From the IMG/VR virus record IMGVR_UViG_3300033508_000321: a stretch of DNA of 64,000 bases, one strand, 5' to 3'. A program made the translations under genes and the position numbers. The stretch is from a virus. This document shows, piece after piece, positions 36,171 through 58,394 of the stretch (position 1 is its first letter; the number at the start of each line of letters is the position of its first letter). The notes below the pieces were generated by a model. That model saw only the letters and a list, made by a program, of their open reading frames with translations, was not told the DNA's origin and made no database searches.

Positions 36171-37322
36171 ATGGAAAAACTAGTTTACGTAAAAAAAAGG
36201 GAGGGGAACTGGTATGTAGAACCAAATACCCTAATAAGTCAGCCTAGCGTTAGCAACATAAACCAATGGTATGACTTCGATATTTCAGGAAAGAGAATGA
36301 TCCTCAGACCGCAGCATCCCGGTTACAATGATGGTGACATAATCGGCTTTAAATCCGCCGCTTTTTTTCCTGATGATGACTACGTAGGTGCAGGTGCAGA
36401 ATGGACAGAGGTATGTATTTCCGGTGTATGGAAACACGAACCATACTTCGAGAAATATCCATCGGCAAAACCAAAAATTCGTGAGTTGGATATCTTGAAA
36501 AAGAACATCGAACCGATGACAATAGAAGCAAGTGGATTTGCTATTGATACCGATTTGTGGTACTACCTGCTACTACTGATGAAACAAGGTAAGCAGGTGC
36601 TACTAAGCGGTGCGAGCGGTAGCGGAAAAACGGAGCTACCGATGTACTTAGTTAAACATTTGAACGGATTGAAAAACGTTAGCGCACGAAAACTTGATAT
36701 CTTTGATATGGCAGTGAGTAACCCGGAGGCGAATTTCAAAGGTCAGATGCATATGGTTAACGGTACAACCGAATTTGTATATAGCAGATTCGCAAAAAGG
36801 ATTCAAGAACCTCACCAAGTGATAGTACTGGACGAGGTAAACCGTGGTGACTTGGACGTGCAAAATATGCTGATGCCGTTGTTCGATGGACGTAGAACTC
36901 TATTTGTAGAGCGTGGACATACCGAAGAGATAAAAGCACACCCCACTACCGTTTTTTGGGCGACTGCCAATGTAGGTAACGAATTTGCGGGTACAAACAT
37001 GATTGACTTAGCATTCCTGCAACGTTTTCATGTGGTAGAAGTGCCATTTCCAAAACCAGAGGACGAAGTAAAAGTACTCGAGATGCGTACTAGGGTTGAA
37101 CATGATTCGGCTGTAAAACTGGTAAAATTGGCGGGAAAAGTTCGTGAAAACCCTAGTATAAAACCAATATCCACACGCCAGTTAATTTTTACATCTGAGC
37201 TAGTCGTGGCAGGTTATCCAATAGTGAAAGCAATAGAACTTTCAATCCTTACTCAGTACCCTACTGATGGGTTTTCAGGCGGTGACCGTGGAATAGTAAA
37301 AGCAGAAATTTTGAAGCTATGA
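36171..37322 (+). CDS. AAA+ ATPase, MoxR/CobS-like
   Basis: Walker A LLSGASGSGKTE. Walker B VIVLDEVNRGD. ATGA-coupled to the vWA gene. Confidence 0.75.
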   Translation: MEKLVYVKKREGNWYVEPNTLISQPSVSNINQWYDFDISGKRMILRPQHPGYNDGDIIGFKSAAFFPDDDYVGAGAEWTEVCISGVWKHEPYFEKYPSAKPKIRELDILKKNIEPMTIEASGFAIDTDLWYYLLLLMKQGKQVLLSGASGSGKTELPMYLVKHLNGLKNVSARKLDIFDMAVSNPEANFKGQMHMVNGTTEFVYSRFAKRIQEPHQVIVLDEVNRGDLDVQNMLMPLFDGRRTLFVERGHTEEIKAHPTTVFWATANVGNEFAGTNMIDLAFLQRFHVVEVPFPKPEDEVKVLEMRTRVEHDSAVKLVKLAGKVRENPSIKPISTRQLIFTSELVVAGYPIVKAIELSILTQYPTDGFSGGDRGIVKAEILKL

Positions 37323-38992
37323 GAGTATTCGATGCATTAAAAACTGACTGGCTTGGACGTGGTGAAAACTATGTGAAACGTGCAGAATTAACTTTTGATT
37401 TGTTAACGCTTGAACCTTATTCTACTTTCATGTACAAAATACCGGCGGGTGCAGTTAGTTTCGTACAACCGCTCACCACTAAATTTGTCAGCACGATAAA
37501 ACCGGTGACGATAAAGTATAGCGATAAAGGTAGCAGCACTGATGGTAAGCAAATTATAATCAGCACCGAGCCAGAGGCTACTTTAGAACCACAGAAAGCG
37601 TTGGACGTGATGATCGGTCTGGGATGCCGTGAAGTAGCGCACATCATGTATACAACATTTGAGGTGGAGAAAAATGAGGTTTTGCGAGCGATTATAAACA
37701 TTGTAGAGGATGAACGTATAGAGGATCGAATGGTAACAGATTTGCCCGGCGTTTTTCCATTCTTACAGCGTGCAAAAGCGTTCTTTTTTGACAGAATACC
37801 CGATGCGCCTAAAAACGAATTACAAGAGATATTTTTGGCCTTTTTACGCTTAGTACGTTACCCTGCTACACTACCCGAGGAATTAGCTGATAAGTATAAT
37901 GATGTGCTGGAACAGATACTTGAAATCTTGACACCGTACCCGAGCACGTTCGAAGAGGTAAAAATTGCATCGAAAAAAATATACGAACTGTTTCTACAAT
38001 TCATGGACGAGCAAGAAGAACAGCAACAACGGAATGAGCAAGGCGAAAGTGAGGATGTGGAAGAGGGCGAAGGGCAAAGCAGTGGTGAGGAATCTACTGA
38101 GGAAAAAATGCTACGTATGCTGAAAAGTTTGGCGCAAGCATTAGAACCAGAGGTAGAAGGTGAAAAGCCAGAGGATACTCGAATACTACCAACCGAGGGC
38201 ACGTGTGATGTATTTTCGGTAAGGTGGCAAAAACCCGGCGGAATGATAAAAGGTAAACCTGACTTAAGTAGCGTAGCAGCTATCCGCCGTGAATTTCTAC
38301 CGATTGACTATACCAAGAAACACGTGCTACACAATAAAAATAGCGGTAGCTTAGATGATACTGAACTGGTACGAGGCTTTGCCGGTAGTAAGAACATCTA
38401 CGAGGTAACATCATACGGAAAAGCCGATATTTTGAATCTTGTTCTTTTGGTGGATCAATCTGGTAGCATGGATGGTAGCCGAATAGAAATGGCAAGAAAC
38501 GTAGCTATAATCGTGAGGGAAGCAACACGTGGATTTTCATTTATTCGCTTTTTTGCTTATGGTCATTCTACTGAGGATAGTGGTAGACCTACACCTACGG
38601 ACTTAGATATTTTTTGCGAAAAGGGCGTGGATAAATTGGATTCGATACAAGCGAAAAATGCTTGCAATCGTGATGGTAGCGCAATCATGGAGGTTACTGC
38701 TCGAGTACAAGCATTAAGCCCCTACAAAACTGTTATTCTGATGATCAGCGATGGCCAACCGAATGCCTTAGTACCACACGGGTTTACGGATGAAAGTTTT
38801 ATACGTCACGCAGTAAAATTTGCGGAAAAACGGAAAACCAAAATAGCACACATAAGCATGGTAGGTTTATCGTGGAAAAACGTATACGCATACGAGATGG
38901 ATGCAAGCAGTAATTTTACCATGAAAATGGTACTGATGCTTAGACAGGTATTGAAAGATAATTTTGCTCAAAATGTGTTAACAAAACTTTAA
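37319..38992 (+). CDS. von Willebrand factor A (vWA) domain protein, CobT-like
   Basis: Central acidic tract EEQQQRNEQGESEDVEEGEGQSSGEESTEE. MIDAS motif LLVDQSGSMDGSR. Confidence 0.75.
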   Translation: MRVFDALKTDWLGRGENYVKRAELTFDLLTLEPYSTFMYKIPAGAVSFVQPLTTKFVSTIKPVTIKYSDKGSSTDGKQIIISTEPEATLEPQKALDVMIGLGCREVAHIMYTTFEVEKNEVLRAIINIVEDERIEDRMVTDLPGVFPFLQRAKAFFFDRIPDAPKNELQEIFLAFLRLVRYPATLPEELADKYNDVLEQILEILTPYPSTFEEVKIASKKIYELFLQFMDEQEEQQQRNEQGESEDVEEGEGQSSGEESTEEKMLRMLKSLAQALEPEVEGEKPEDTRILPTEGTCDVFSVRWQKPGGMIKGKPDLSSVAAIRREFLPIDYTKKHVLHNKNSGSLDDTELVRGFAGSKNIYEVTSYGKADILNLVLLVDQSGSMDGSRIEMARNVAIIVREATRGFSFIRFFAYGHSTEDSGRPTPTDLDIFCEKGVDKLDSIQAKNACNRDGSAIMEVTARVQALSPYKTVILMISDGQPNALVPHGFTDESFIRHAVKFAEKRKTKIAHISMVGLSWKNVYAYEMDASSNFTMKMVLMLRQVLKDNFAQNVLTKL

Positions 38993-40799: not shown

Positions 40800-41172
40800 C
40801 AAAGAGAATTTAGAACCTACCATGCAGGTAGCACACCGACCAAAAATAACACCGCTAGAGGTGTTCAGAAAATTGGCGGCAGAGGTAACAGACGATGCAC
40901 TTATAACGTATTTAGAAGTGCTTAGGAAACGTTTCTACGTAGAAGAAAGAATACTTGTACACAATGTCGGTTTGCTCACACACATGGAAAAAAACAACGT
41001 GCTGAGCGAAGTTGTAAACCGTATTCAGCATCTAGGATTGAAGGGCGAAATAAAGCGGGAAAATGTGCTGGCGTTTCTTGCTTTGCTCAAATATCACTAC
41101 TCAATAAACGTAGAAAATTTGGGTGGAAAAGATCGTTTAACAGTGTTAAATTACTTTTATGAGCGTAGCTAG
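40783..41172 (+). CDS. Hypothetical protein
   Basis: 129-aa ORF overlapping its neighbours by 17 and 14 nt. Confidence 0.5.
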   Translation: MWYKINKENLEPTMQVAHRPKITPLEVFRKLAAEVTDDALITYLEVLRKRFYVEERILVHNVGLLTHMEKNNVLSEVVNRIQHLGLKGEIKRENVLAFLALLKYHYSINVENLGGKDRLTVLNYFYERS

Positions 41173-41458
41173 GGTAGAAAGCATAAAGCTATCAGAGGTA
41201 ACACATGAGCGTGATTTCGTACTCAAAACGCTGGGTTTTGCTAATCGTCAGTGGGAAAGTAGTAGGCTGCAGCTTACTTTTGGCGAGGCACTGGGTGTTT
41301 TTCGGGCAGTTACTGAGCTAGGGTCGTTTGTTGGTATGTCAGCGCACACGCCTCAGATGTTTATTTTTGTTGACGTGAACATAAAGAGTCACGCAGCAAT
41401 GGACATGGTAGCCAATTTAGAGTACAGATGTAAAGTAAAAACGGCAAAAGATTTTTAA
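41159..41458 (+). CDS. Small paralog 1 (C-terminal LEYRCKVK motif)
   Basis: Shares the C-terminal (L/I)E(Y/F)xC(K/R/E)(V/I)K motif with the next three ORFs. Confidence 0.5.
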   Translation: MSVARVESIKLSEVTHERDFVLKTLGFANRQWESSRLQLTFGEALGVFRAVTELGSFVGMSAHTPQMFIFVDVNIKSHAAMDMVANLEYRCKVKTAKDF

Positions 41459-41462
41459 TGTT

Positions 41463-41759
41463 ATGAGTTTCCAAACCTACGCAGGTAAACAAGCAATGAA
41501 AGACATAGTTTTTTCTTTCGAGGACTTAGCTCGGAAGGTTACATGGGTAAAAGGGCAAGCACCAACAAATGCAGAATACGAAAAACGGGCGAAAATAAAC
41601 GGGAAACTGACCATGTATAGAGATTGGGTAAAAGCACCTACAACAATAGGTACGGTAGACTATATAAGTGATACCGGATGGCATTTCACAAACTCAGGTT
41701 TGGACGTAATTAGTTGGGATAAACTTGTAAACCTTGAGTACCTATGTCGAGTGAAGTAG
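41463..41759 (+). CDS. Small paralog 2 (ends NLEYLCRVK)
   Basis: IVFSFEDLARKVTW aligns with MVFSVDDLYKKVSY of paralog 3. The stop lies inside the next gene's first 16 nt. Confidence 0.55.
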   Translation: MSFQTYAGKQAMKDIVFSFEDLARKVTWVKGQAPTNAEYEKRAKINGKLTMYRDWVKAPTTIGTVDYISDTGWHFTNSGLDVISWDKLVNLEYLCRVK

Positions 41760-42016
41760 ATTGGATGTTAACATCAGCTAAAATGGTTTTTTCGGTGGAT
41801 GATCTATACAAGAAAGTAAGCTATGCTGTAATGGTGAAAGGTACAGATTTTAGAGAGATAATGAAAGAGGGTATAGCTGATAATTTCTGGCTGCTCAGAG
41901 GCGTTTTAAGCTGTGGTGTAGTTACGAAATTTAAAGTCGGTGAAATACATTACCCAAATACAGTTGTGAAGTTTGCCCAACTTAAATACATAGAATACCA
42001 ATGCGAGATAAAATAA
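41744..42016 (+). CDS. Small paralog 3 (ends YIEYQCEIK)
   Basis: 16-nt overlap at both ends. Confidence 0.55.
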   Translation: MSSEVDWMLTSAKMVFSVDDLYKKVSYAVMVKGTDFREIMKEGIADNFWLLRGVLSCGVVTKFKVGEIHYPNTVVKFAQLKYIEYQCEIK

Positions 42017-42234
42017 TATACGATGCCGATTCAGTTTACAGAATTTCCGGGAAAACGGTTCTTGACTTAGAAGATGGAAAAAGTAAACGGCGGGTGGGAA
42101 AACCTTATTTCTTGCAAGATTTAAGAATGTTCAAAACCATAAACAAAGAGATAAACATAAAAATGCCGGGAAGCGAGTATTTCGTGAAAAGAAAAGCGGC
42201 GGAAATAATGGAATTTATATGCGAAGTGAAATAA
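42001..42234 (+). CDS. Small paralog 4 (ends IMEFICEVK)
   Basis: 16-nt overlap at both ends. Confidence 0.55.
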   Translation: MRDKIIYDADSVYRISGKTVLDLEDGKSKRRVGKPYFLQDLRMFKTINKEINIKMPGSEYFVKRKAAEIMEFICEVK

Positions 42235-42587
42235 CACTTGACCCAAATAGTACTCTCAGCGATTACTATTCAATGTTTTGTGCTGACGCACAAATTACAA
42301 ATAAGAAAAACACCATGAAAACAATGACTCGGACAGAAAAAAGAAATACTTTATTACTTGCTAAAGTAACAGTAAGCCCACTAACGGTGGAATCAGAGAA
42401 AGCCTTTTTTAAAAGCCGGGTTAAAGAGCAGCATTTAGCTCTTATTGTGACTGATGATAACCTTTGGAAAGGATACCAGAGTTACAACGCTCTGATGAAA
42501 GAATCGGGTGATACCGATTACAAACACCTAACTTCTAAAGAAGTATTAGTACTGAGGGAGGAAATAAAAAAGGAATTTAACTTATGA
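42219..42587 (+). CDS. Hypothetical protein (starts in the conserved 16-nt junction)
   Basis: Starts MRSEI, like paralog starts MSSEV/MRDKI. The body is not obviously paralogous. Confidence 0.5.
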   Translation: MRSEITLDPNSTLSDYYSMFCADAQITNKKNTMKTMTRTEKRNTLLLAKVTVSPLTVESEKAFFKSRVKEQHLALIVTDDNLWKGYQSYNALMKESGDTDYKHLTSKEVLVLREEIKKEFNL

Positions 42588-42967
42588 TTGTTACCCTATT
42601 CCATGATTACGAAGTAGTAAAAAAGCTACGTACCTCAACACTTGTGCGCATCTTTTTTGACCGCAAAGGTAAGAATACTGATGTATTTTACCTATCCGCT
42701 AAACAACTGGATAAGCTGCATGCATCATACAGCAAAGTACAAAATTCAAGGGTAAAAGATACCCACGGGTTGGTTGTTATTGATGATGATAGATTTGTAT
42801 GGTCTGGTGTTGAATTTCCTGATTATTCAGACCGTGAAAACCTTTGTAAGCATTTTTCTGGCGGTTTTTCATCTATTTACGAGAAAGTAGAAGTTACAAA
42901 GGAAACGCACACCCCCGAAGAAGTAAAACCCGTAGAAACAAAACCGAATGATGATCTTGTTAGATGA
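42584..42967 (+). CDS. Hypothetical protein
   Basis: ATGA-coupled 127-aa ORF. Confidence 0.5.
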   Translation: MIVTLFHDYEVVKKLRTSTLVRIFFDRKGKNTDVFYLSAKQLDKLHASYSKVQNSRVKDTHGLVVIDDDRFVWSGVEFPDYSDRENLCKHFSGGFSSIYEKVEVTKETHTPEEVKPVETKPNDDLVR

Positions 42968-44144
42968 CCAGGCAAAAGCATTTGAAAAGCTAAAAACCCT
43001 TAAAGTAGGTGCACTTTTCATGTCACCGGGTGCGGGTAAAACCCTAACAGCCTTTGAGCTTATTCATAGTGTAGAAGGTATTAACTACGTGTTATGGTTA
43101 ACACCCTTTCAGACGAAAGAAAATTTGCGCAAAGAATTAACAGAGTATGGTGGTTTTGACTTTGCCCATGATGTAGTGGGTATAGAAACACTTTCATCAT
43201 CTGATGCTGTTTATCTGAAATTAAGTAAGAAGATACAAGAGCATAACACATTTATAGTGTGTGATGAAAGCCTGAAAATAAAAAATTTGGCGGCAAAGCG
43301 TACCCAAAGAATCCTAGAACTGAGCAAATTTTGTGAGTACAAACTCATATTGAATGGTACACCGCTAAGCAAGAATGTAATGGATTTATGGGCACAGTTA
43401 CAATTCCTTAGCCCTAAAATACTAAATATGCCTTTGGCTCAGTACAAGAGTGTATTCGTGAAATACACCACCATCACGAAGAAAATAAACGGCTATAAAG
43501 TAACAAGGGAGTTTATCGATGGCTACGCCAATATTGATTACCTGTACTCACTTATTAAACCCTACGTGTACGAGTGTGACCTTACAGTAAATGTAGAAAA
43601 ACATTATGTAGAGTACATTTATGAGGTAGGTGAAGAAGCAAAAGAAGAGTATAACAGGTTAAAAAAGTTCATGTCTGAGCATGAATATTTGCTTTTCAGG
43701 AATAACAACGTATTCTTGGAACTGATACAAAACTTACAAATGGCTTACTGTACAGTACCTGAAAAATTCGAACTCCTGGGGTGGGTGCTTACTCAGGTAG
43801 AACCAAAGAAAACCATTGTTTTTTGTAAATTTATACGTAGTGTTGAATCCATTAGTAAGAAATTTCCATACCTTAAAGTACTGACCTACGGTAAACACGC
43901 ATACGGGTTAAATTTGCAGGAATATAATACGGTTGTATTTTGGGATAAAACCTTTGATTATGCGTTACGATTACAAGCCGAAAGGCGTATCTTTAGAACC
44001 GGGCAAACTGATATTTGTACGTATTATGACCTAACAGCTAGTACGGGTTTGGATAACATGATAAACGGAAATATAGAGCGGAAAGAATCCATGCTCAGTT
44101 ACTTTAAGAAAATAGCATTTAAAACTTTTATTGAAAACTTATGA
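42948..44144 (+). CDS. SNF2-family helicase/ATPase
   Basis: Motif I MSPGAGKT. Motif II VCDESLKIKN. Motif III LILNGTPLSKNVMDLWAQLQFL. Motif VI RIFRTGQT. Confidence 0.75.
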   Translation: MMILLDDQAKAFEKLKTLKVGALFMSPGAGKTLTAFELIHSVEGINYVLWLTPFQTKENLRKELTEYGGFDFAHDVVGIETLSSSDAVYLKLSKKIQEHNTFIVCDESLKIKNLAAKRTQRILELSKFCEYKLILNGTPLSKNVMDLWAQLQFLSPKILNMPLAQYKSVFVKYTTITKKINGYKVTREFIDGYANIDYLYSLIKPYVYECDLTVNVEKHYVEYIYEVGEEAKEEYNRLKKFMSEHEYLLFRNNNVFLELIQNLQMAYCTVPEKFELLGWVLTQVEPKKTIVFCKFIRSVESISKKFPYLKVLTYGKHAYGLNLQEYNTVVFWDKTFDYALRLQAERRIFRTGQTDICTYYDLTASTGLDNMINGNIERKESMLSYFKKIAFKTFIENL

Positions 44145-44689
44145 AAAAAGCAGCGTTTAAAAGCCCTGTGTACAGTGTTGTAGCTGTACCGATTTATAAA
44201 ATTGAGGCAAATAACTACAATCCAAACCACGTTGCAAAGCGTGAAATGGACTTACTCTACCAAAGCATAAAATGTGATGGGTACACTATGCCTATTGTAT
44301 GTTTCTATGATGATGAAAGGGATAAATACATTATCGTGGATGGTTTTCACCGTTATACGATTATGCTCAAATACAAAGATATTTTTGAGCGAGAAAATGG
44401 TATGTTACCGGTATCAGTTATTCACAAAGATCTAAGTGACCGAATGGCTTCAACAATTCGTCATAACAGGGCACGAGGTAAACATGAAGTGGAACTGCAA
44501 GCATCTTTAGTCGGGATGTTAAAATCTGGGTGGGATGAGCTAAAAATAATGAAAGAGCTGGGCATGACCTTAGAAGAAGTACAACGTTTGATAGGTTTAC
44601 GTGGTATAGCAAGTGAGATAAAAGGTGTACCTTATTCAATCGAACGCCAAATAATAGAAGCAGGGGAGGACGTTACTGATGAAGATTAA
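44141..44689 (+). CDS. ParB/Srx-fold N-terminal domain protein (IbrB-like)
   Basis: YNPNHV...IIVDGFHRYT...IRHNRARGKH. ATGA-coupled to the SNF2 gene. Confidence 0.65.
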   Translation: MKKAAFKSPVYSVVAVPIYKIEANNYNPNHVAKREMDLLYQSIKCDGYTMPIVCFYDDERDKYIIVDGFHRYTIMLKYKDIFERENGMLPVSVIHKDLSDRMASTIRHNRARGKHEVELQASLVGMLKSGWDELKIMKELGMTLEEVQRLIGLRGIASEIKGVPYSIERQIIEAGEDVTDED

Positions 44690-45260
44690 ATTTATAGTAA
44701 TGACCAGCGAGGATCCTAAAAGGATTGAAAATGTACAAAAAATGGAAATTCCGGACTTAGTAATTTACAGGGGTGATAACGATGACGTATTTCAAAAGTA
44801 TCTTAATTGTTTTATCCTAGAATCTGAGTATGATGGCGTGCTAGTACTTGAGGATGATGTACAACTTTGCTGGGATTTTTATACTAAAGTGTTAGGTATA
44901 ATTCAAAAATATGCCAGTGATGTGATTAGCTTTTTTGAAAAGCCTAATTCTAGACAGGTACTTGAAAAAGGTTTTAGGCCGGGGCGTGACTTTATGTTCA
45001 ACCAGTGTAATTATTACCCTAAAGCTACATGTGAGTTATTTTTAGGTTCGGAAAACGTAGCTGAGTTTAAAAACTCATATTTCACTAAATACAAAGTTTG
45101 GGTAGCCCCGATCGATATTTACATAGCACACGTGCTAAGTAAATACAAGTTAGAGTACCTTATGTACTTACCTTTTTTGGTGCAGCATTTACCCTTTAAA
45201 TCTATTTTGGGTAACAGGTCTACCAAACGTCAAACCAAATTTTTTATAGATGACCTATGA
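44679..45260 (+). CDS. Glycosyltransferase family 25-like protein
   Basis: MKIKFIVMTSEDPKRIENV... and VLVLEDDVQLCWDF resemble the GT25 N-terminus and EDD motif. Confidence 0.45.
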   Translation: MKIKFIVMTSEDPKRIENVQKMEIPDLVIYRGDNDDVFQKYLNCFILESEYDGVLVLEDDVQLCWDFYTKVLGIIQKYASDVISFFEKPNSRQVLEKGFRPGRDFMFNQCNYYPKATCELFLGSENVAEFKNSYFTKYKVWVAPIDIYIAHVLSKYKLEYLMYLPFLVQHLPFKSILGNRSTKRQTKFFIDDL

Positions 45261-46414
45261 AAAGAACTACAACGCTGGGCACGGAAAACGTGTTGGAATC
45301 TACACTAAAACGTATTGCTTACCTGTTTGATCACTATGATAATATTTCCTTATCATTCTCTGGTGGTAAAGATAGCACTGCTTTGTTTCATTTGGTGAAT
45401 AACGAGGCTGTGAAACGTGATAGGAAATTTATTCTATACTTTCAAGATCAGGAAGCAGAGTATCAGGGTACTATTGACCTAATGGAATGGGCTATGACTA
45501 GGCCAAACGTAATACCACTTTGGTATCAAGTACCGATTTTTATGACCAATGCAGCTAGTCACCAACAACTATTTTTGTGGGCGTGGGGTGAGGGTGAAAA
45601 ATGGGTGCGAGAAAAGCATCCGATGGCCATACAATCTATTGATGGAAAATATCCTAAGCGGTTTTATAAGTTTAACTTGTGGGTAGGTCAGCAACTAAGA
45701 AAATTGCCCGGAAATCATGTATCAATAATCGGATTAAGAGCCGAAGAAAGCCCTGATAGACGTTTTGTGATGTTTGGCGAAGACAGTGATTTGTTTTGGT
45801 TACGTAGAAAAACAGAGCCACATAAAGCATATCCTATTATTGATTGGGCATATACCGATGTGTGGAAGTACCTTATTGAAGGTAGTTACAGGTACAATAA
45901 CGTGTATGATAAGATGTATATGCTAGGTGGTAATTTACGCCAATTCAGGGTTTCAAATTTGGTGCATGAAAAGGCATTCCGGTGTTTAACTGATTTGCAG
46001 GAATTAGAACCTGAAACGTATGATAAGTTAGAAGAACGTTTGCAGGGTGTACATACGGCAGCTATCTATGGCAAAGAAGCCTTGATTTATTCGATAAAAA
46101 CCTTACCGGAAAGTTTTAAAACATGGAAAGAGTACAAGGATTTTCTACTAAGTAGTATACACCCAGACCTGAGCAAATTGTTTCGTTATCAATGGTCACG
46201 TTTTGGTGATACGGACGATGTACGAGCTTGTAAATACATGGTAAAACGTATTCTATTATGCGACTGGGAGGGTAACATCAAAGAACAGGATTGGATGAAA
46301 TACTACCCTGAGTGGACTGTTAATAAATTCAACTACACCAAGGAACAGATACTAGAAAAAAATAGGCAGAAACGTGAAGATCCAGTAATAAATAAATGGA
46401 TGGCCAAGCTGTGA
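45257..46414 (+). CDS. PAPS reductase-family PP-loop ATPase (IbrA/DndC-like)
   Basis: PP-loop SFSGGKDSTALFHLV. C-terminal FRVSNLVHEKAFRCLTDLQELEPETYDKLEERLQGVHTA resembles the IbrA C-terminal extension. Confidence 0.65.
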   Translation: MKRTTTLGTENVLESTLKRIAYLFDHYDNISLSFSGGKDSTALFHLVNNEAVKRDRKFILYFQDQEAEYQGTIDLMEWAMTRPNVIPLWYQVPIFMTNAASHQQLFLWAWGEGEKWVREKHPMAIQSIDGKYPKRFYKFNLWVGQQLRKLPGNHVSIIGLRAEESPDRRFVMFGEDSDLFWLRRKTEPHKAYPIIDWAYTDVWKYLIEGSYRYNNVYDKMYMLGGNLRQFRVSNLVHEKAFRCLTDLQELEPETYDKLEERLQGVHTAAIYGKEALIYSIKTLPESFKTWKEYKDFLLSSIHPDLSKLFRYQWSRFGDTDDVRACKYMVKRILLCDWEGNIKEQDWMKYYPEWTVNKFNYTKEQILEKNRQKREDPVINKWMAKL

Positions 46415-46420
46415 AATGTT

Positions 46421-46448
46421 AAAACGCTGCTTAATTGCAGCGTTTTTT
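46421..46448 (+). terminator. Rho-independent terminator
   Basis: AAAACGCTGC-ttaatt-GCAGCGTTTT followed by TT. Confidence 0.7.
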
Positions 46449-46472
46449 ATTATTTTTGTTAAAATAAATGCA

Positions 46473-46480
46473 TAGATTTG
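46473..46480 (+). promoter_or_regulatory. -7 box TAgaTTTG
   Basis: Exact TAnnTTTG 17 nt before ATG 46498. Confidence 0.5.
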
Positions 46481-46497
46481 TAAAAATTTTACATTTT

Positions 46498-47373
46498 ATG
46501 GACATAAACGAATTAAAAGAACTCATAAAACCCGCTTTTGCAAGCGTCGGTAAACTACCAAAAGAAGAGGCGAAGAACTACGGTAATTACAAATTGATGC
46601 CGGTAGAGATATTGGTGAAAGCGGGTTGGAATTACAAGCAAGAAAACCCGTATACGAGTGATAAACTAAACGCTAATTTAAAGCGTAACGGGCAGGTAGA
46701 AAATATACAAGTACGATTACTTGATACAGGTTACTACGAGGTAGTAAATGGTAACCACCGCTTAGATGAAATCATAAAACTTGGGCGCAAAATGGTGGTG
46801 GTTTATGACCATGGAAAAGTAAGTTTAGCCGAGGCGAAGCGTATTGCCATTGAAACAAACGAAACGAAATTTAAAGCGGAAGAAACGCTTTTGGCGGAAG
46901 CAATCCGAGAACTCGAAGCAGAATTTGGCTTAGAAGACCTAGAGCAAACATTACCATTCTCGGATGAAGAAATGGAAAAAATGATGTCGGAAATGGATTC
47001 TGAGTTTGAGGAACCAACACAGGGTAATTATACACGCAAGATTGAATCGCCTACCTATGAGCCAAAGAATGAAAAACCGCACACCATAGACTTGTACGAC
47101 AAAAGCAAGTATGAGCAACTTTTAGAGGGTATAGAGGGTAGCTCAGCAGATCCAGAGGTTAAGATGTTTCTAAAAATTGCGGCGGCAAGGCACATAGTTT
47201 TTGACTATTCTAAGATAGCCGATTTTTATGCGCACAGCGATGCACAGGTACAACGTTTGATGGAGGATTCAGCACTCGTAATTATAGACTTTAATAGAGC
47301 TATTGAGCTAGGTTTTGTGCAGTTATCGGAGAATATAGCAAAACAATACACAGAGGATTATGGAAAAGCCTAA
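46498..47373 (+). CDS. Second ParB N-terminal domain protein with acidic C-terminal half
   Basis: Start moved to ATG 46498, downstream of the -7 box. YYEVVNGNHRLDEI...IAIETNETKF ParB-like motifs. Confidence 0.65.
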   Translation: MDINELKELIKPAFASVGKLPKEEAKNYGNYKLMPVEILVKAGWNYKQENPYTSDKLNANLKRNGQVENIQVRLLDTGYYEVVNGNHRLDEIIKLGRKMVVVYDHGKVSLAEAKRIAIETNETKFKAEETLLAEAIRELEAEFGLEDLEQTLPFSDEEMEKMMSEMDSEFEEPTQGNYTRKIESPTYEPKNEKPHTIDLYDKSKYEQLLEGIEGSSADPEVKMFLKIAAARHIVFDYSKIADFYAHSDAQVQRLMEDSALVIIDFNRAIELGFVQLSENIAKQYTEDYGKA

Positions 47374-48223
47374 AGATTTTTGCATTTTTATTATCTCACA
47401 TGGTAGGCCTGATAAGGTAATGACGTGGAATACTTTGAAAAAAGTTGGTAATACATCACCAGTTTACATTGTTATAGATGATACGGATAAAACATCGGAA
47501 AAATACTACACTAATTTCGGTAAAGAAACAGTAGTGATGTTCGATAAAGAAGCGATAGCCAAAACTACGGATCATGGAGATAATTTTTGGAACCTACGCA
47601 CAACTACTCACGCACGAAATGCTTGCTTCGACATAGCTAAAAAATTAGGGTACACGTACTTTTTAGTGCTAGACGATGATTATACCTACTTTGCGTACAC
47701 GGCAGACGATGCCTTTAACTACAATAGTAAGGGCACACCAGTAAAAGATATAAATAAAACTTTTTGTTTGTTTATCGATTTTTACAAGAGTATTCCAGCA
47801 CTTAGTGTATGTTTTGCTCAAGGGGGCGACTTTGTGGGCGGCGAAAATTCTGCTGTATTTAAAAAAGAACTATCAAGAAAGGCTATGAACTCGTGGTTTT
47901 GTTCTGTAGATCGCCCCTTTAAATTCATAAGTAGGTTGAATGAGGATGTTAACACTTACTTGTGTCTGGGTGCCACAGGCGGTTTATTCTTTACAGTTAC
48001 GTGGATAAGACTTGAGCAGATACAAACGCAGCTAAATTCAGGTGGAATGACGGAGGCATACCTAGAAGGTGGTACATACGTAAAATCATTCTACACAGTG
48101 ATGTACTGTCCATCTTTTGCTAAGGTAGGATTAATGGGTAACACCAATAAAAGGTTGCACCATAGAATATCATGGAATAATGCAGTACCTAAGATTGTAA
48201 ATGAAAATATTAGAAAAATATGA
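47360..48223 (+). CDS. GT-A-like glycosyltransferase (DxD)
   Basis: FIISHGRPDK...VYIVIDDTD...YTYFLVLDDDYTYF. Fold call by motif only. Confidence 0.35.
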   Translation: MEKPKDFCIFIISHGRPDKVMTWNTLKKVGNTSPVYIVIDDTDKTSEKYYTNFGKETVVMFDKEAIAKTTDHGDNFWNLRTTTHARNACFDIAKKLGYTYFLVLDDDYTYFAYTADDAFNYNSKGTPVKDINKTFCLFIDFYKSIPALSVCFAQGGDFVGGENSAVFKKELSRKAMNSWFCSVDRPFKFISRLNEDVNTYLCLGATGGLFFTVTWIRLEQIQTQLNSGGMTEAYLEGGTYVKSFYTVMYCPSFAKVGLMGNTNKRLHHRISWNNAVPKIVNENIRKI

Positions 48224-48714
48224 AAAAGAAAGAAAAAATTTGGGCGGAGGTTCAACCAAAAATATACGATGAAAAATACCACGATATAAAGATGGAAGAA
48301 TTGGTGATGGAAGGGTTAACGTTGCAAGAAATTGCAGAAAAATTGGCGGTAGAATATCGAACATTAACAAAATGGTTAGTACGTTACCCATCACTGGCAG
48401 AAGCATTCAATCGTGGACGTATACCGAGAGATTTGGCGGTGGAAAATGCCCTTTACAAGAGAGCTATTGGATATACGTATGAAGAAAAAATAGCTGAGTC
48501 AACTGGTACGATGGAGGAGGCGGAGGGGAAAAAAAGGGCGGGAAAATTCCGAAGAGTAACAAAACATATGCCACCAGATGTAGAAGCAATAAAGATGTGG
48601 TTAAGTAATAAAAAACCACACCTGTGGTCAAACACTCAAAAGATAGATGTAACATCGAAAGGACAACAAATGCCGATTGTAATGATAGGTGCACCACCGG
48701 AAGAGGAAAAATAG
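48220..48714 (+). CDS. Terminase small subunit
   Basis: HTH GLTLQEIAEKLAVEYRTLTKWL. ENALYKRAIGYTYEE and PPDVEAIKMWLSNKKPHLWSN are typical small-terminase motifs. Confidence 0.65.
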   Translation: MKKKEKIWAEVQPKIYDEKYHDIKMEELVMEGLTLQEIAEKLAVEYRTLTKWLVRYPSLAEAFNRGRIPRDLAVENALYKRAIGYTYEEKIAESTGTMEEAEGKKRAGKFRRVTKHMPPDVEAIKMWLSNKKPHLWSNTQKIDVTSKGQQMPIVMIGAPPEEEK

Positions 48715-51979: not shown

Positions 51980-53485
51980 ATGTGGAATCAAGATTTTTTC
52001 CCCACGCCGGCAGAGGTAGTATCACAGATGCTACTCGGTGAGGATTTAATCGGCAAAATAATTTTAGAGCCTTCAGCAGGTAAAGGTAACATAGTGGACA
52101 TATTGGTAGAACGTGGTGCAAAAGAAGTGTTAGCGTGTGAGCAAGAACCACAACTACGTAGAATACTCAAAGGCTGCAAAATCTTAGCCGCTGATTTTCT
52201 CACTCTTACCAGTGAGGCTGTTAGCCACATTGACTACATCATAGCAAACCCACCGTTTTCAGAGCAAGAAAAGCACATACAGCACATGATCGATATAGCA
52301 CCCGATGGTTGCATCATTGTAACGTTGTGCAACTCGAATTTAACAAACGCAAATACTACCTCACGCCATAGAATAATGAGCTACGCAAGTCAGTATGGCT
52401 ATTCGCAGGATTTGGGTAGCGTTTTTAGTGATGCTGAGCGCACAACGGATGTAAGCGTTTCAATGCTCAAAATTTTTAAACCGAAAACGGCGGAAAATGA
52501 GTTTGATGGGTATTTCGAATTAGACGATACACCAGAGGAGGATGGCGAAGGCATTATGAGCTATTCAATCATTCGGGAGTTCGTTAACCGATACGTAGGT
52601 GCGATAAAAGATTTTGACTCAGTATACGAAGCCCAAAAGCGGATGAATAACCTAATACAGCCATTCAATAGCAGTATCGTTTTTTCCGCTCACGATGACA
52701 AAACACCACTAACACGTGAAGCATTCAAAAAGCAATTACAAAAAGCGGCGTGGAAAATGATTTTTTCGAAAATGGATATGCATAAGTACACTACCGAAAA
52801 GCTAATGACGCAGTTAAATAAATTCGTAGAACGTCAGCAACACGTGCCCTTTACCGTTAAAAATGTGTGGAAAATGATCGACATGATTGTCGGTACACAT
52901 GATTCCCGGATGCAGTCTTTAATCGTAGAAATCTTTGATAAAATCACAGCACACACACCCGATAATAAACTGGTGCAAGAAGGGTGGAAAACCAACAGCG
53001 AGTATATTGTTAACAAGCGATTTATTCTACCTTCGCACGATGTTCGAATGGGTTACAACGGTAAACCGGATTGGAACTGGAACCGAAATAATTATTTCTT
53101 AGATGACCTCACAAAAGCACTTAGGCTTGTAATGGGCAACGAGTTGGGAAAAGCAGCGAGAGCGGAATTTATTAAGTTAGAAGGTATACGTCCGGTGCAA
53201 TGGTATGCCGTTGGTAGCTGCAAATGTATGCTTGAAAATGATGGTACAATTCGTGAAGAACCCTTGGGATTCTCAGAGGTAATAAAATCGGCGGAATGGG
53301 GTGAGTGGTGTAGTTTCGGATACATAAAATTCAGATGCTACAAGAAGGGTACAGTACACGTGGAATTTCAAACAGAAGAAGTTTGGGCAAAATTTAACAA
53401 CGTAGCAGCAAAAGCAAAAGGATTTCAGTTAGCAAGCAATTTCAAACCAAATACTAAAAAGAATGGAAATAAGTTTAATTCCTAA
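51980..53485 (+). CDS. N6-adenine DNA methyltransferase with long C-terminal extension
   Basis: FFPTP (motif X), ILEPSAGKGNI (motif I), IIANPPFS (motif IV). About 330-aa C-terminal region of unknown role. Confidence 0.75.
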   Translation: MWNQDFFPTPAEVVSQMLLGEDLIGKIILEPSAGKGNIVDILVERGAKEVLACEQEPQLRRILKGCKILAADFLTLTSEAVSHIDYIIANPPFSEQEKHIQHMIDIAPDGCIIVTLCNSNLTNANTTSRHRIMSYASQYGYSQDLGSVFSDAERTTDVSVSMLKIFKPKTAENEFDGYFELDDTPEEDGEGIMSYSIIREFVNRYVGAIKDFDSVYEAQKRMNNLIQPFNSSIVFSAHDDKTPLTREAFKKQLQKAAWKMIFSKMDMHKYTTEKLMTQLNKFVERQQHVPFTVKNVWKMIDMIVGTHDSRMQSLIVEIFDKITAHTPDNKLVQEGWKTNSEYIVNKRFILPSHDVRMGYNGKPDWNWNRNNYFLDDLTKALRLVMGNELGKAARAEFIKLEGIRPVQWYAVGSCKCMLENDGTIREEPLGFSEVIKSAEWGEWCSFGYIKFRCYKKGTVHVEFQTEEVWAKFNNVAAKAKGFQLASNFKPNTKKNGNKFNS

Positions 53486-54243: not shown

Positions 54244-54515
54244 TAAACCAGAAAATTAAAGATGCTATTGAGAATGGCTATTTAGATGATAGCGTATGCG
54301 TTAACCCCGATGGTTATTTTGTAACCGTAGAAGTTAAGTTACGCATACCGAAGAGTTTTATGCACCAAGTTCATACAAGGCAGATAGAGAAAGGATTGAA
54401 GAAGTACGGTAAAACCATTGACGATTGCGAACCGGATGAGCATCCGTGGGAACTGATGGCGATTGAAGAAATGATCGATTTATTGGCATATTACTTTAAA
54501 AACAAGCAACAATGA
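54240..54515 (+). CDS. Hypothetical protein (weak MazG-like resemblance)
   Basis: KKYGKTIDD...WELMAIEEMIDLLAYY. Low-confidence similarity only. Confidence 0.3.
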   Translation: MINQKIKDAIENGYLDDSVCVNPDGYFVTVEVKLRIPKSFMHQVHTRQIEKGLKKYGKTIDDCEPDEHPWELMAIEEMIDLLAYYFKNKQQ

Positions 54516-55171
54516 AAGTAGAAAGATCATTGCGTGTACTAATAACGCATGAAGAAAGTCAAACAGTAATGGAGGCGTTTTTGAATGCCGGACATGATGC
54601 GTATAGCTGCGACTTATTGCCAGCAAGTGGTAAATACCCTGAAAGGCACTTGCAGATGGATTGCTTTGAGGCCATAAAATTTATTAAACCGGATTTTTTA
54701 GGGATGCACCCGGAGTGTACTCGATTAACAGTTGCGGCAAATAAATATTACAAGCCCGAATATGCTGAAAGGTTTCCAGATATACACACGCAGCGAGCCG
54801 AGGCGGTTGACCATTTTTTGAAATGCGCCGAAGCACTAGAGCACGTTGGTACGGGTTACATTGAAAACCCAATAGGCATAATGAGCAGGTTGCATAAAAA
54901 GCCAACTCAAATAGTACAACCTTATCAATTCGGACATTCTGAACGTAAAAGCACTTGTTTATGGCTTGCCGGATTGCCTACGTTGTACGCCACTAAAGTA
55001 GTTGAGCCTGATATAATCGTGCATAAAAGTGGTAGAACTGACAGCCGCTTGCACTACGAAACTCTTAAACTGCCAAGAGAGGAAAGAAGAAAAGCACGGT
55101 CAAAAACATTTCCGGGTATCGCTCAGGCAATGGCCGAACAATGGACTAATTATTTACTTAATAAATTATAA
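54512..55171 (+). CDS. Phage-type DNA C5-cytosine methyltransferase-like protein (divergent motifs)
   Basis: LRVLITHEESQTV...GHDAYSCDLLP...GMHPECTRL...YIENPIG...QPYQFGH...KSTCLWL...RSKTFPGIAQAMAEQW match the short phage Dcm-like family as I recall it. PEC replaces the usual PPC. Confidence 0.55.
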   Translation: MKVERSLRVLITHEESQTVMEAFLNAGHDAYSCDLLPASGKYPERHLQMDCFEAIKFIKPDFLGMHPECTRLTVAANKYYKPEYAERFPDIHTQRAEAVDHFLKCAEALEHVGTGYIENPIGIMSRLHKKPTQIVQPYQFGHSERKSTCLWLAGLPTLYATKVVEPDIIVHKSGRTDSRLHYETLKLPREERRKARSKTFPGIAQAMAEQWTNYLLNKL

Positions 55172-55173
55172 CA

Positions 55174-55992
55174 ATGAAAGTAGAAATTTTAGCAGATTCA
55201 CTGCACCGAGGCCACCGCCTCACCACTTTCCGACTCACGTTTCCTCAAATCATAGTAAAGGAAATGCTTCGGCATAGAATGTTTTCTTTCGCAAGTCTGA
55301 GTATGCGGGCTATTGGCTTAGATAGAAACATAGAAAAAATAAAGGCGGATATGTGGCGACCTTTGAGCTGGTTACCTGAGCACAAAGGTATGTGTACTGA
55401 TGAGGTAATTGAAAACCGGGAAGAACTGGACGAGCTACATAATGAGCTATTCCAAATCACTATGCGATACGTAAGACAGTTGCAGCAAAGAAACGTATCC
55501 CACCAAATCGTTAACCGGTACATAGAACATTTCGGGCAAGTGCAGATGATTGTATCAGCAACCGAATGGGAAAACTTCTACAAGTTACGCAGGGGTAAAC
55601 GTGCTGAGCAGCACATAAAACTTTTGGCGGAAACGATGTACGATGCTCAAAATACGAGTACACCATACACGTCCGATGACCGCTTCTGGCATATGCCATT
55701 CGTTGGTGGTATAGAAGAAAACGTGGCGAAAGTAGCACGTGTTTCGTTTAGTCAAGATAAGGTATTCACACCAGAGGAAAATAAAAACTTGTACAAGAAA
55801 CTTTTAGCAAGCGGTGAAATGTCACCATTTGAACACGTGGCCGTGGCAATGGGTAGCCGTTACTATGATTATTCACGAACCGTTACCGGTGGTTTAGAGC
55901 ATGGATGGGATAAAAATTTCCGTGGTTTTATTTCTCTTCGCACGCTGGTGGAAAACCCTTTGAACGTAGACTACGTGGAAATGGCAGTGTAG
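55174..55992 (+). CDS. thyX: ThyX-like flavin-dependent thymidylate synthase
   Basis: RHRMFSFASLSMRA fits the ThyX signature RHRxxSxxxxSxR(Y), with Ala in place of Tyr. Confidence 0.65.
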   Translation: MKVEILADSLHRGHRLTTFRLTFPQIIVKEMLRHRMFSFASLSMRAIGLDRNIEKIKADMWRPLSWLPEHKGMCTDEVIENREELDELHNELFQITMRYVRQLQQRNVSHQIVNRYIEHFGQVQMIVSATEWENFYKLRRGKRAEQHIKLLAETMYDAQNTSTPYTSDDRFWHMPFVGGIEENVAKVARVSFSQDKVFTPEENKNLYKKLLASGEMSPFEHVAVAMGSRYYDYSRTVTGGLEHGWDKNFRGFISLRTLVENPLNVDYVEMAV

Positions 55993-57838: not shown

Positions 57839-57969
57839 AAGGCATTATACCGCACCTGAGCACGTATGATGCTACGCATCTGCTACAGCAAGTAGAAAGC
57901 CTGTATGGTCGGAAAACCATTGAAGAAGCCATCTTATTTTTACAAATGACTTACACCGGCAGAGTATGA
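57796..57969 (+). CDS. Unlisted 57-aa ORF bridging lysozyme and dam-like genes
   Basis: MDTISKEEFIEAVLKGIIPHL... Overlaps the lysozyme 3' end by 43 nt. Its stop overlaps the next ATG (ATGA). Confidence 0.3.
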   Translation: MDTISKEEFIEAVLKGIIPHLSTYDATHLLQQVESLYGRKTIEEAILFLQMTYTGRV

Positions 57970-58394
57970 ATGATGCAATGTTTAGCAGTAAGAGGCATGA
58001 CTACGAAACACCGTTGGATTTTTTCGCTTTGCTCAATGAGCAGTACTTCTTCGATTTGGATGTGTGTGCAAGCAGTGCAAATACCAAGTGCTCGAATTTC
58101 TTTTCGGTAGATGATAACGGTCTGGAAAAAGAATGGTACGGAACGTGTTGGATGAATCCACCCTATGGTCGTGAAATCGGGAAATGGGTAGCAAAAGCGG
58201 CAAGCGAAGCCGAGAAAGGAATTACCATTGTAGCGTTGCTACCTGCCAGACCAGACACGAAATGGTTTCACCAACACATCTACGGTAAACACGAAATACA
58301 GTTTATCAAAGGGCGTCTAAAATTTGTTGGTGCCCCTAGCTCAGCCCCGTTTCCTTCAATGCTCGTAATATTTCGCAAAGAATGGAAGCAGTAA
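57966..58394 (+). CDS. Phage-type N6-adenine DNA methyltransferase (Dam family)
   Basis: ETPLDFFALLNEQYFFDLDVCAS...CWMNPPYGREIGKWVAKA...LLPARPDTKWFH...APFPSMLVIF. Confidence 0.8.
   Translation: MNDAMFSSKRHDYETPLDFFALLNEQYFFDLDVCASSANTKCSNFFSVDDNGLEKEWYGTCWMNPPYGREIGKWVAKAASEAEKGITIVALLPARPDTKWFHQHIYGKHEIQFIKGRLKFVGAPSSAPFPSMLVIFRKEWKQ

Follow-up and report, generated by a model that had tools for sequence, protein, structure and literature searches.

An extended IbrA/IbrB gene module with an embedded GT25-like gene in a tailed-phage genome: a candidate nucleic-acid modification system

Introduction

What do four overlapping genes, placed between the replication and the packaging genes of a tailed phage, accomplish together? 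The genes in question occupy positions 42948-46414 of the IMG/VR virus record IMGVR_UViG_3300033508_000321, a stretch of 64,000 nucleotides that is referred to here as the window. In order, they encode an SNF2-family ATPase, a ParB/Srx-fold protein of the IbrB type, a small GT25-like glycosyltransferase (GT) and a PP-loop enzyme of the IbrA type. A preliminary description of this DNA had read them as a four-gene operon and a candidate DNA-modification system. Judged from its family assignments, the module is a rare, extended version of a widespread and functionally unsolved gene pair, IbrA/IbrB, known in Escherichia coli K-12 as YbdN/YbdM.

IbrA and IbrB are abundant yet biochemically uncharacterised, and the core that they form travels with ParB paralogs, SNF2 proteins and interchangeable glycosyl-, methyl- and possibly acetyl-transferases. 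The sole phenotype on record is that, to go by the title of Sandt et al. 2002, ibrA and ibrB reportedly activate prophage eib gene expression, the original observation being said to concern the expression of surface immunoglobulin-binding (Eib) proteins. Our own literature search, made in an incomplete collection in which absence is no proof, found no biochemical characterisation of IbrA/IbrB, ybdN/ybdM or DUF3440; the preliminary description had likewise known of no defined product for a phage module of this type. Phage copies of IbrA are usually filed as sulfur-metabolism genes, and the IbrA described here is without the residues for sulfur or redox chemistry. The present comparison replaces a customary label with a hypothesis specific enough to be tested, and four cultured phages are available for the purpose: Microbacterium phage Hendrix, Flavobacterium phages FCL-2 and 1H, and Streptococcus thermophilus phage CHPC1148.

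Results

Gene structure of the module

All four open reading frames (ORFs) lie on the + strand, at 42948-44144 (SNF2, 398 aa), 44141-44689 (IbrB, 182 aa), 44679-45260 (GT, 193 aa) and 45257-46414 (IbrA, 385 aa), exactly as first described, and successive ORFs overlap at their start and stop codons by 4, 11 and 4 nt. IbrB and IbrA belong to one coupled block in which they are separated solely by the GT ORF. The terminator noted after the fourth gene was recovered as an intrinsic-terminator-like hairpin on the + strand at 46421-46446, with a 10-bp stem containing five G-C pairs and a 6-nt loop, followed by TTATTATTTT as its T-run; it closes the gene chain. The operon proposed in the preliminary description stands as regards translational coupling. 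It is not self-contained: the ORF before SNF2 (42584-42967) shares 20 nt with the beginning of the SNF2 gene, and + strand genes that overlap or nearly touch one another continue upstream, with hardly a break, to at least 39051. When the four family calls were checked by profile and structure tests, all held and none was reassigned.

IbrA is an ATP-using PP-loop enzyme by prediction

IbrA joins an N-terminal PP-loop domain to a helical DUF3440 C-domain. It matches Pfam PAPS_reduct (PF01507) at 6.4e-15 (56 bits, cutoff 22.5), DUF3440 (PF11922) at 1.2e-10 (41.9 bits, cutoff 25) and phrog_2302 at 2e-117, and is 27% identical to E. coli YbdN over 321 residues (E 4e-28), which bears out both its placement in the PAPS-reductase family and the IbrA analogy. 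The PP-loop, SGGKDS, occupies residues 35-40 and is invariant, together with D64/E66, G159/E164/S165/R168, D196 and Y217, in alignments of 9 and of 84 diverse homologs; D218 is invariant in the smaller set and at least 90% conserved in the larger. In the AlphaFold2 (AF2) model (predicted local distance difference test, pLDDT, 82) the N-domain superposes on CysH, the PAPS-like domain of FAD synthase, the FMN adenylyltransferase FMNAT, CysD, TilS and TtuA, the Foldseek matches aligning approximately 220-300 columns of the 385 residues with a template modelling (TM) score, normalised to the query, of about 0.36. Sequence and model together place IbrA in the PAPS-reductase/FMN-adenylyltransferase/CysD branch of PP-loop enzymes, with an intact ATP-binding loop, and the direct reading of both is a predicted ATP-using activity of the adenylyl-transfer or ATP pyrophosphatase type.

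The same data bear on sulfur chemistry. No family-wide conserved cysteine was found in the homolog alignments; three alignment columns carry cysteine in 46-67% of sequences, all of these in a clade other than that of the window protein. Scores against curated models were 19.8 bits for DndC (TIGR03183, cutoff 290), 28.7 for cysH (TIGR00434, cutoff 165) and approximately 22 for CysD (cutoff 195), while the PADLOC model of DndC gave a partial match over 60 residues and BrxP likewise gave weak partial matches. Because IbrA has no conserved redox or iron-sulfur cysteines and scores far under these cutoffs, PAPS reduction and persulfide or Fe-S chemistry are disfavoured, which argues against the label of 'sulfur auxiliary metabolic gene' (AMG) as well as against Dnd-like phosphorothioation or thiolation. 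Two specific identities were tried and rejected: a PAPS/APS reductase sensu stricto (CysH), given the cysH score and the absence of a conserved catalytic C-terminal cysteine, and DndC, given its score, the same want of conserved cysteines and the absence of DndA, DndD or DndE partners among the scanned ORFs. That scan, against Pfam and PHROGs, covered approximately 40 ORFs of the window, those of about 140 aa or more.

IbrB, the glycosyltransferase and the SNF2 ATPase

IbrB matches phrog_2159 at 3e-82 and Pfam ParB_N at 7e-4, under the Pfam cutoff, and is 42% identical to YbdM of E. coli K-12 (E 4e-38). An alignment of 16 diverse sequences shows invariant N-x-YNPN, DG-x-T-x-P, DGFHR and RHNRARG-x-H motifs and a C-terminal tail resembling a helix-turn-helix (HTH). 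The family profile matches the N-domains of Noc and ParB at 5e-6, with DGFHR aligned to the 'GERR' box of ParB, and gives weaker matches (E 0.004-0.07) to the ParB/Srx-fold free-serine kinases SerK and SbnI. As these alignments have it, IbrB is a ParB/Srx-fold protein, as previously proposed, whose set of invariant motifs resembles a nucleotide pocket and whose tail is HTH-like. Long IbrB variants (approximately 370-460 aa) were searched for an additional Pfam domain and none was found.

The third protein has no match of its own in Pfam, PHROG, NCBIfam or PADLOC, and a search of PDB sequences with its profile also found nothing; structure comparison alone succeeded. Its AF2 model (pLDDT 91.2) returned 38 PDB matches at E <= 1e-3 in Foldseek, the top-ranked being GT-A enzymes with TM-scores to the query of up to 0.64, and the matches include Mimivirus R655, POMGNT1 and human COLGALT1 (entry name GLT25D1). 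Against a library of viral structures the best match was a 192-aa protein of Microbacterium phage Hendrix (TM 0.80), followed by many annotated GT25 proteins. Pfam Glyco_transf_25 (PF01755), which does not match the window copy, matches 20 of its 34 homologs at E <= 0.1 (best 2.4e-6), two homologs carrying a precomputed match. A GT25-like identity, as first suggested, is supported by sequence and model at the level of fold and family. Across the 34 homologs E58-D59-D60 (LEDD), Q169-H170 (LVQH), R184-Q185 and D191-D192 are invariant; by analogy, LEDD may be the DXD motif that handles metal and nucleotide-sugar, and H170 may correspond to the C-terminal histidine of such enzymes. An exhaustive profile search found 772 representative proteins at E <= 1e-3 and only 11 at <= 1e-30, so the window protein belongs to a small subfamily of a larger GT-A family of approximately 190 aa. 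Distant members of this larger family have as fusion partner either a second GT domain or a UDP-glucose dehydrogenase. A close relative, P0275 (515 aa, E 9e-66), is fused to a 320-aa C-terminal region with no credible Pfam family (a 14-residue match to ScsC_N, E 0.004) and no match in the fetched loci.

The first protein is a minimal SNF2-family ATPase, in keeping with the original call: it matches Pfam SNF2-rel_dom at 3e-12 (46.6 bits, cutoff 24.9) and phrog_62 at 1e-63, and Helicase_C at 21.5 bits, just under the cutoff of 23.5. A PDB sequence search gave 62 SNF2 matches, headed by the S. solfataricus SNF2/Rad54 core (1z63, 1e-12), after which the next solved relatives are eukaryotic remodellers. 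Motifs I, II, III and VI of SNF2 type (GAGKT, DESL, NGTP and Q-x3-R-x2-RTGQ) are present and conserved across 17 homologs, among which the Walker A residues G28/G30/K31, D106-E107-S108 and the motif VI residues Q343/R347/R350/G352/Q353 are at least 90% conserved. In Flavobacterium phages FCL-2 and 1H the gene that precedes IbrB/IbrA encodes a protein 44-46% identical to this one, and gp26 of Streptococcus phage CHPC1148 is still 38% identical, that is, across phyla. Resemblance to DpdE was confined to local matches.

Distribution and variable additions to the IbrA/IbrB core

IbrA/IbrB-type pairs are very common: more than 2,000 protein clusters at 90% identity are reachable from a single query, and relatives occur in 223 phage records and 719 plasmids. 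To these can be added the ybdNM pair of the E. coli K-12 chromosome. Genomic context was scored in 80 IMG/VR loci fetched with a diverse IbrA alignment, using ORFs called by a simple longest-ORF script and hidden Markov models built locally from few sequences; the labels 'GNAT-like' and 'amino-methyltransferase-like' are weak. IbrB lay within 5 kb of IbrA in 75 loci, and in most of the remainder IbrA is near a contig end. Near IbrA we found two or more ParB-type genes in 23 loci, a class-I methyltransferase dependent on S-adenosylmethionine (SAM) in 11 (Pfam Methyltransf_25, 1e-6), a GNAT-like protein in 11 (a weak assignment; Acetyltransf_7, 6e-4, under cutoff) and a GT25-like gene in six. 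The module is usually situated just upstream of terminase genes; one large-terminase family was near IbrA in 16 of the 80 loci, with other terminase families clustered separately.

The SNF2 gene is an optional accessory of the core, being present in approximately 16% of loci (13/80), and in the architecture listings it always lies directly upstream of the pair. SNF2 and GT genes occur together near IbrA in none of the 80 loci. The closest IbrB-GT-IbrA relative retains only a 69-aa C-terminal remnant of SNF2 (L006, 7251-7460; the same contig as L097, 6667-6876), and for this reason the motor appears dispensable.

The preliminary description knew of no such module with an embedded glycosyltransferase, and in this respect it has to be revised. 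The GT-bearing variant is recurrent, being found in the six IMG/VR loci, in several other metagenomic contigs and in cultured phage Hendrix. An independent retrieval of GT homologs placed them, too, within IbrA/IbrB modules and added three gene orders; no member of this subfamily was found outside such modules, which show at least four different orders. At the right end of the Hendrix genome, gp154 is the GT homolog (BLAST 1e-9, LEDD and LVQH kept) and is followed by a glycosyltransferase (gp155), a methyltransferase (gp156), an acetyltransferase (gp157) and an IbrA homolog with 34% identity, annotated 'adenylyltransferase' (gp158); the left end carries three ParB-like genes, an HTH protein and the terminase (gp1-5 region). 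The full arrangement of SNF2, IbrB, GT and IbrA beside a ParB-TAGT cassette (described below) was seen only in the window phage.

The closest genomic relatives of IbrA are 68-84% identical and come mostly from Bacteroidota assemblies (Flavobacterium, Riemerella, Chryseobacterium, Paludibacter and others). Gene order in most of them is c10-SNF2-IbrB-[slot]-IbrA, where c10 is a small conserved protein without a homolog in the window; c10, c11 and c7 have no Pfam family. The slot is either empty, as in FCL-2 and 1H (SNF2-IbrB-IbrA), or holds a GT (the window, L006/L097) or a protein of approximately 213 aa. Slot proteins of approximately 184-239 aa were found at L100:7357-8001, L101:7360-8001, L102:7279-7998, L104:7360-8001 and L105:7465-8019. 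The 213-aa type comprises two homologous subtypes (hhalign probability 93.7%) with the motifs FIDPPC or WCDPPW, D-x-F/C-x-G-x-G and G(T/S)E-x-N, which are characteristic of beta-class DNA amino-methyltransferases and make this a weak candidate assignment. These proteins had no match in the phage collection and, when compared, were unrelated to the methyltransferases of the window itself. In CHPC1148 the order is SNF2-IbrA-IbrB. Relative to FCL-2 and 1H, IbrA is 75-78% and IbrB approximately 85% identical, whereas SNF2 is only 44-46% identical, a difference that implies strong constraint on the IbrA/IbrB core or its exchange as a cassette.

On plasmids the pair was seen bare in two cases (L110:8968-10817 and L111:8971-10832): a Klebsiella IncFIB plasmid, where it adjoins the iro siderophore cluster, and an E. 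coli IncF plasmid, where an autotransporter gene is close by. Neither of the two plasmids has annotated leading-region or anti-defence genes adjoining IbrA-IbrB, and so they offer no support for an anti-restriction role in plasmid establishment.

Genes surrounding the module

The window is a tailed-phage genome, with genes for tail sheath, tape measure, baseplate hub, head protease, and small and large terminase. Upstream of the gene chain lie replication and recombination genes (a DnaB-like helicase, primase, family A polymerase and RecA-like protein), with a Cas4-like exonuclease and a weak resolvase-like protein in the same region, and the module forms the end of this replication/recombination chain, before the packaging genes. 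Within the chain, at 41159-42234, are four tandem, overlapping, small paralogous ORFs (99, 98, 90 and 77 aa) that have a common C-terminal motif, (L/I)E(Y/F)-x-C-x-(V/I)K. Further upstream, at 36171-38992, an AAA_5 (MoxR/CbbQ-like) ATPase precedes a protein with a VWA domain; unrelated phages bearing GT25-like genes also have an AAA_5 ATPase, followed there by a DUF7192 protein (L008:1173-3270; L009:2287-4354).

Directly downstream of the hairpin, on the + strand, are a second ParB-like protein, ParB2 (46468-47373; phrog_620, 2e-19), its partner, a member of the TET-associated glycosyltransferase (TAGT) family (47360-48223; PF20691, 7e-32; phrog_842, 1e-69), and the small terminase subunit that marks the packaging genes (48220-48714; phrog_309, 1e-33). 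The TAGT protein scores 111.4 bits against PF20691 (cutoff 27.5), its residues 9-223 covering profile positions 3-200 of 205, and the GT25-like and TAGT profiles show no relationship outside the DXD region. ParB2 has no detectable similarity to the IbrB-type ParB. Both E. coli phage vB_EcoS-683R6 and Lactobacillus phage phi jlb1 carry a ParB gene ahead of TAGT, and its product is 31% identical to ParB2. Phages of Lactobacillus, Porphyromonas and E. coli keep the order ParB-TAGT-TerS-TerL-portal, and in Nocardia phage NTR1 an unannotated ORF and a TAGT-like ORF stand directly before TerL; in the stretches compared, none of these phages has IbrA nearby or an annotated hydroxymethylpyrimidine pathway. 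With homologous ParB partners and an order conserved without IbrA, ParB-TAGT constitutes a separate recurrent cassette. In the window we take it for an adjacent, separately conserved module whose functional tie to the four genes might be real and is a candidate only. In T2 and T6, TAGT adds a second sugar to hydroxymethylcytosine that is already glucosylated, and a 2026 study found solitary TAGT homologs, lacking alpha- or beta-GT, in 288 of 753 phage genomes.

Elsewhere in the window there are three methyltransferase-type genes (one containing DUF4942, one of phrog_757 with PC- and ENP-like motifs, and one of the Dam family) and a divergent ThyX-like gene directly after the phrog_757 gene, the four lying at 51980-53485, 54512-55171, 55174-55992 and 57966-58394. 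From their family assignments, these genes point to a phage heavily equipped for DNA or nucleotide modification even apart from the four-gene module.

Discussion

A possible role in nucleic-acid modification

The reading that we prefer, as quite possible though short of probable, is that the module acts to modify nucleic acid, phage DNA between replication and packaging being the probable target, with IbrA as the activating enzyme, IbrB as the binding protein, SNF2 providing access and the GT supplying a sugar. In this scheme, IbrB would bind DNA and/or a nucleoside triphosphate (NTP) and position IbrA, which would use ATP to adenylate an oxygen of the substrate, an activation for substitution or AMP transfer rather than sulfur or redox chemistry. 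SNF2 would translocate on duplex DNA, giving access or processivity, and the GT25-like enzyme would add a sugar from a nucleotide-sugar via its DXD site, to which the neighbouring ParB2-TAGT pair might add a further sugar. Repeated recruitment of group-transfer enzymes is a pattern of diversifying hypermodification pathways, and we favour this reading above all because unrelated transferases (GT-A, amino-methyltransferase-like, class-I methyltransferase and GNAT-like) have been recruited repeatedly around one invariant core. The adjacency of IbrA and IbrB, the Hendrix block, the position between replication and packaging genes and the adjoining ParB-TAGT cassette are further points in its favour. 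In so far as the preliminary description proposed a DNA-modification system, the gene context fits modification of nucleic acid; DNA is only its candidate substrate, and the thiolation that it had offered among the possible chemistries is disfavoured.

Several observations weigh against this proposal. DNA as substrate is plausible from gene context, and no tool result shows it. The net charge of the IbrA domains is near neutral, giving no hint of DNA binding, and the DUF3440 C-domain has no counterpart among solved structures in Foldseek. Among the scanned window ORFs there is no enzyme that would generate an acceptor, neither TET/JBP nor a dCMP or dUMP hydroxymethylase. No scored accessory (SNF2, GT, methyltransferase or GNAT-like, ParB paralogs being counted apart) accompanies IbrA in 48 of the 80 loci, and bare IbrA-IbrB pairs are plentiful in chromosomes and on virulence plasmids; those of the E. 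coli K-12 chromosome and of Klebsiella and E. coli plasmids lie away from DNA-modification genes. The PDB matches of the methyltransferase-like slot proteins are non-significant (MboIIA, 0.077; N4-cytosine methyltransferases, 0.2), and the slot could simply be a gene boundary tolerant of insertion, with the GT and methyltransferase as independent cargo. Lastly, the sole recorded IbrAB phenotype, judged by title, is the activation of prophage eib expression.

A more specific form of the proposal, which we consider unlikely in all its particulars, is that the IbrA/IbrB core installs an undescribed covalent DNA mark by ATP-dependent adenylation of a base or backbone oxygen, independently of 5-hydroxymethylpyrimidines, and that in the window phage the GT25-like enzyme attaches a sugar to this mark, which TAGT may extend. 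Were the product indeed a DNA mark, the module would represent a new hypermodification pathway and might account for those TAGT glycosyltransferases that occur alone, for which no primary enzyme is known; an adenylation-based mark that is subsequently glycosylated would in addition be a new route to glycosylated phage DNA and would provide a function for the ybdNM genes of E. coli.

Alternative explanations

That the pair acts on gene expression is a doubtful alternative, and one that the preliminary description did not weigh. IbrB, combining an HTH with a ParB fold, and IbrA would activate late or moron genes of the phage, with SNF2 acting in RapA-like fashion on RNA polymerase or nucleoid proteins and the GT as unrelated cargo. 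The family derives its name from the activation of prophage eib genes by ibrA/ibrB and carries the annotation 'co-activator of prophage gene expression'; the module's typical position just upstream of terminase or late genes is a frequent place of late activators, and the HTH-like C-terminus of IbrB would suit such a role, as would the proximity of an autotransporter gene to the E. coli IncF plasmid pair and the control of E. coli ybdNM by a LysR repressor. However, the invariant PP-loop and catalytic-type residues of IbrA and the invariant pocket motifs of IbrB indicate enzymes, and the recurrent embedded transferases are hard to reconcile with a regulator. Since a DNA mark could itself cause an expression phenotype, this explanation overlaps partially with modification of nucleic acid.

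Alternatively, the enzymes could produce a small molecule. If IbrB were a kinase like SerK or SbnI and IbrA an adenylyltransferase, the two might make an AMP- or ADP-linked donor, for instance an ADP-sugar, that the GT, methyltransferase or acetyltransferase would tailor and transfer to DNA, protein or a cell-surface polymer. The best relatives of IbrA do include FAD synthase/FMNAT and CysD, which transfer AMP to phosphate or sulfate, the Hendrix homolog is annotated as an adenylyltransferase and follows two GT genes, a methyltransferase and an acetyltransferase, and the fusions of distant GT25-like members to a second GT domain or UDP-glucose dehydrogenase would be in keeping with donor synthesis. 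We nevertheless think this unlikely: the kinase matches of IbrB are weak and those to ParB and Noc stronger, most loci have no GT and hence no dedicated transferase, and an SNF2 motor with up to three ParB paralogs points to DNA rather than to small-molecule metabolism.

It is less likely again that the four genes are mere neighbours, IbrA/IbrB being one unit with GT and SNF2 as independent cargo at its boundaries. The failure of SNF2 and GT to co-occur in the IMG/VR loci, the SNF2 remnant in the closest GT-bearing relative and the acceptance of unrelated genes by the slot are all as this explanation would have them. Against it stand the overlapping start and stop codons, the confinement of the GT subfamily to IbrA/IbrB modules in several gene orders, and the fact that SNF2 immediately precedes the pair in phages of Bacteroidota and of Streptococcus alike, although the order within the pair is swapped.

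Sulfur chemistry, whether IbrA is regarded as a PAPS reductase AMG or as a DndC-like phosphorothioate enzyme with IbrB as the DndB analogue, is very improbable, for although IbrA belongs to PAPS_reduct in Pfam and partially matches the DndC, BrxP, CysH and CysD models, phage PAPS reductases are commonly described as sulfur AMGs, and Dnd also pairs a ParB-superfamily with a PAPS-reductase-family protein, the DndC and cysH scores are far too low, the lack of a family-wide cysteine leaves no CysH-type catalytic residue or Fe-S ligands, the PP-loop is of the ATP-using SGGKDS type, and the scanned ORFs include no partner resembling DndA, DndD or DndE.

Comparison with known systems

Modification of nucleic acid, as the preferred reading, invites comparison with systems in which related proteins are established. 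Dnd (DndB/DndC) and type 4 BREX, with its BrxP, likewise combine a PP-loop enzyme of the PAPS-reductase family that acts on DNA with a partner from the ParB superfamily. They differ from the window in that IbrA lacks the cysteines and is far under the DndC cutoff, and no cysteine desulfurase, DndD/E or PglZ/BrxC/BrxL partners were found among the ORFs scanned. The Dpd system was rejected as a match, as no DpdA (tRNA-guanine transglycosylase-like) or preQ0 genes are present among the scanned ORFs, and so was TET/JBP-TAGT hypermodification, which finds there no TET/JBP dioxygenase or other source of 5-hydroxymethylpyrimidine. The glucosylation systems of T2 and T6 resemble the window in that a TAGT member lies 2 kb downstream of another glycosyltransferase. 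Here, the candidate primary GT has a GT-A fold, whereas alpha- and beta-GT are GT-B enzymes, no 5-hydroxymethylpyrimidine pathway was found among the scanned ORFs, and many phages have the ParB-TAGT cassette but neither IbrA nor a GT25-like gene.

The closer likenesses are with other carriers of the IbrA/IbrB pair. Hendrix has a small GT-A homolog in one block with an IbrA homolog, and ParB-like genes beside the terminase; unlike the window, it has an additional GT, a methyltransferase, an acetyltransferase and three ParB-like genes, no SNF2 in the stretches examined, and a block that spans the genome ends. Flavobacterium phages FCL-2 and 1H and S. thermophilus phages such as CHPC1148 have homologous SNF2, IbrB and IbrA in one coupled block, but in these phages IbrB and IbrA are contiguous and no ParB-TAGT cassette follows. 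IbrA/IbrB of E. coli ECOR-9 and YbdN/YbdM of K-12 have in common with the window the two-domain architecture of IbrA and the motif set of IbrB, their genes being overlapping and adjacent, and the cellular and plasmid versions are bare pairs. In the window, by contrast, IbrB precedes IbrA, SNF2 lies upstream and a GT between, in a lytic-type phage and beside packaging genes. By every feature that can be tested on the sequences, the four genes are an extended variant of the two-gene IbrA/IbrB (YbdN/YbdM) core.

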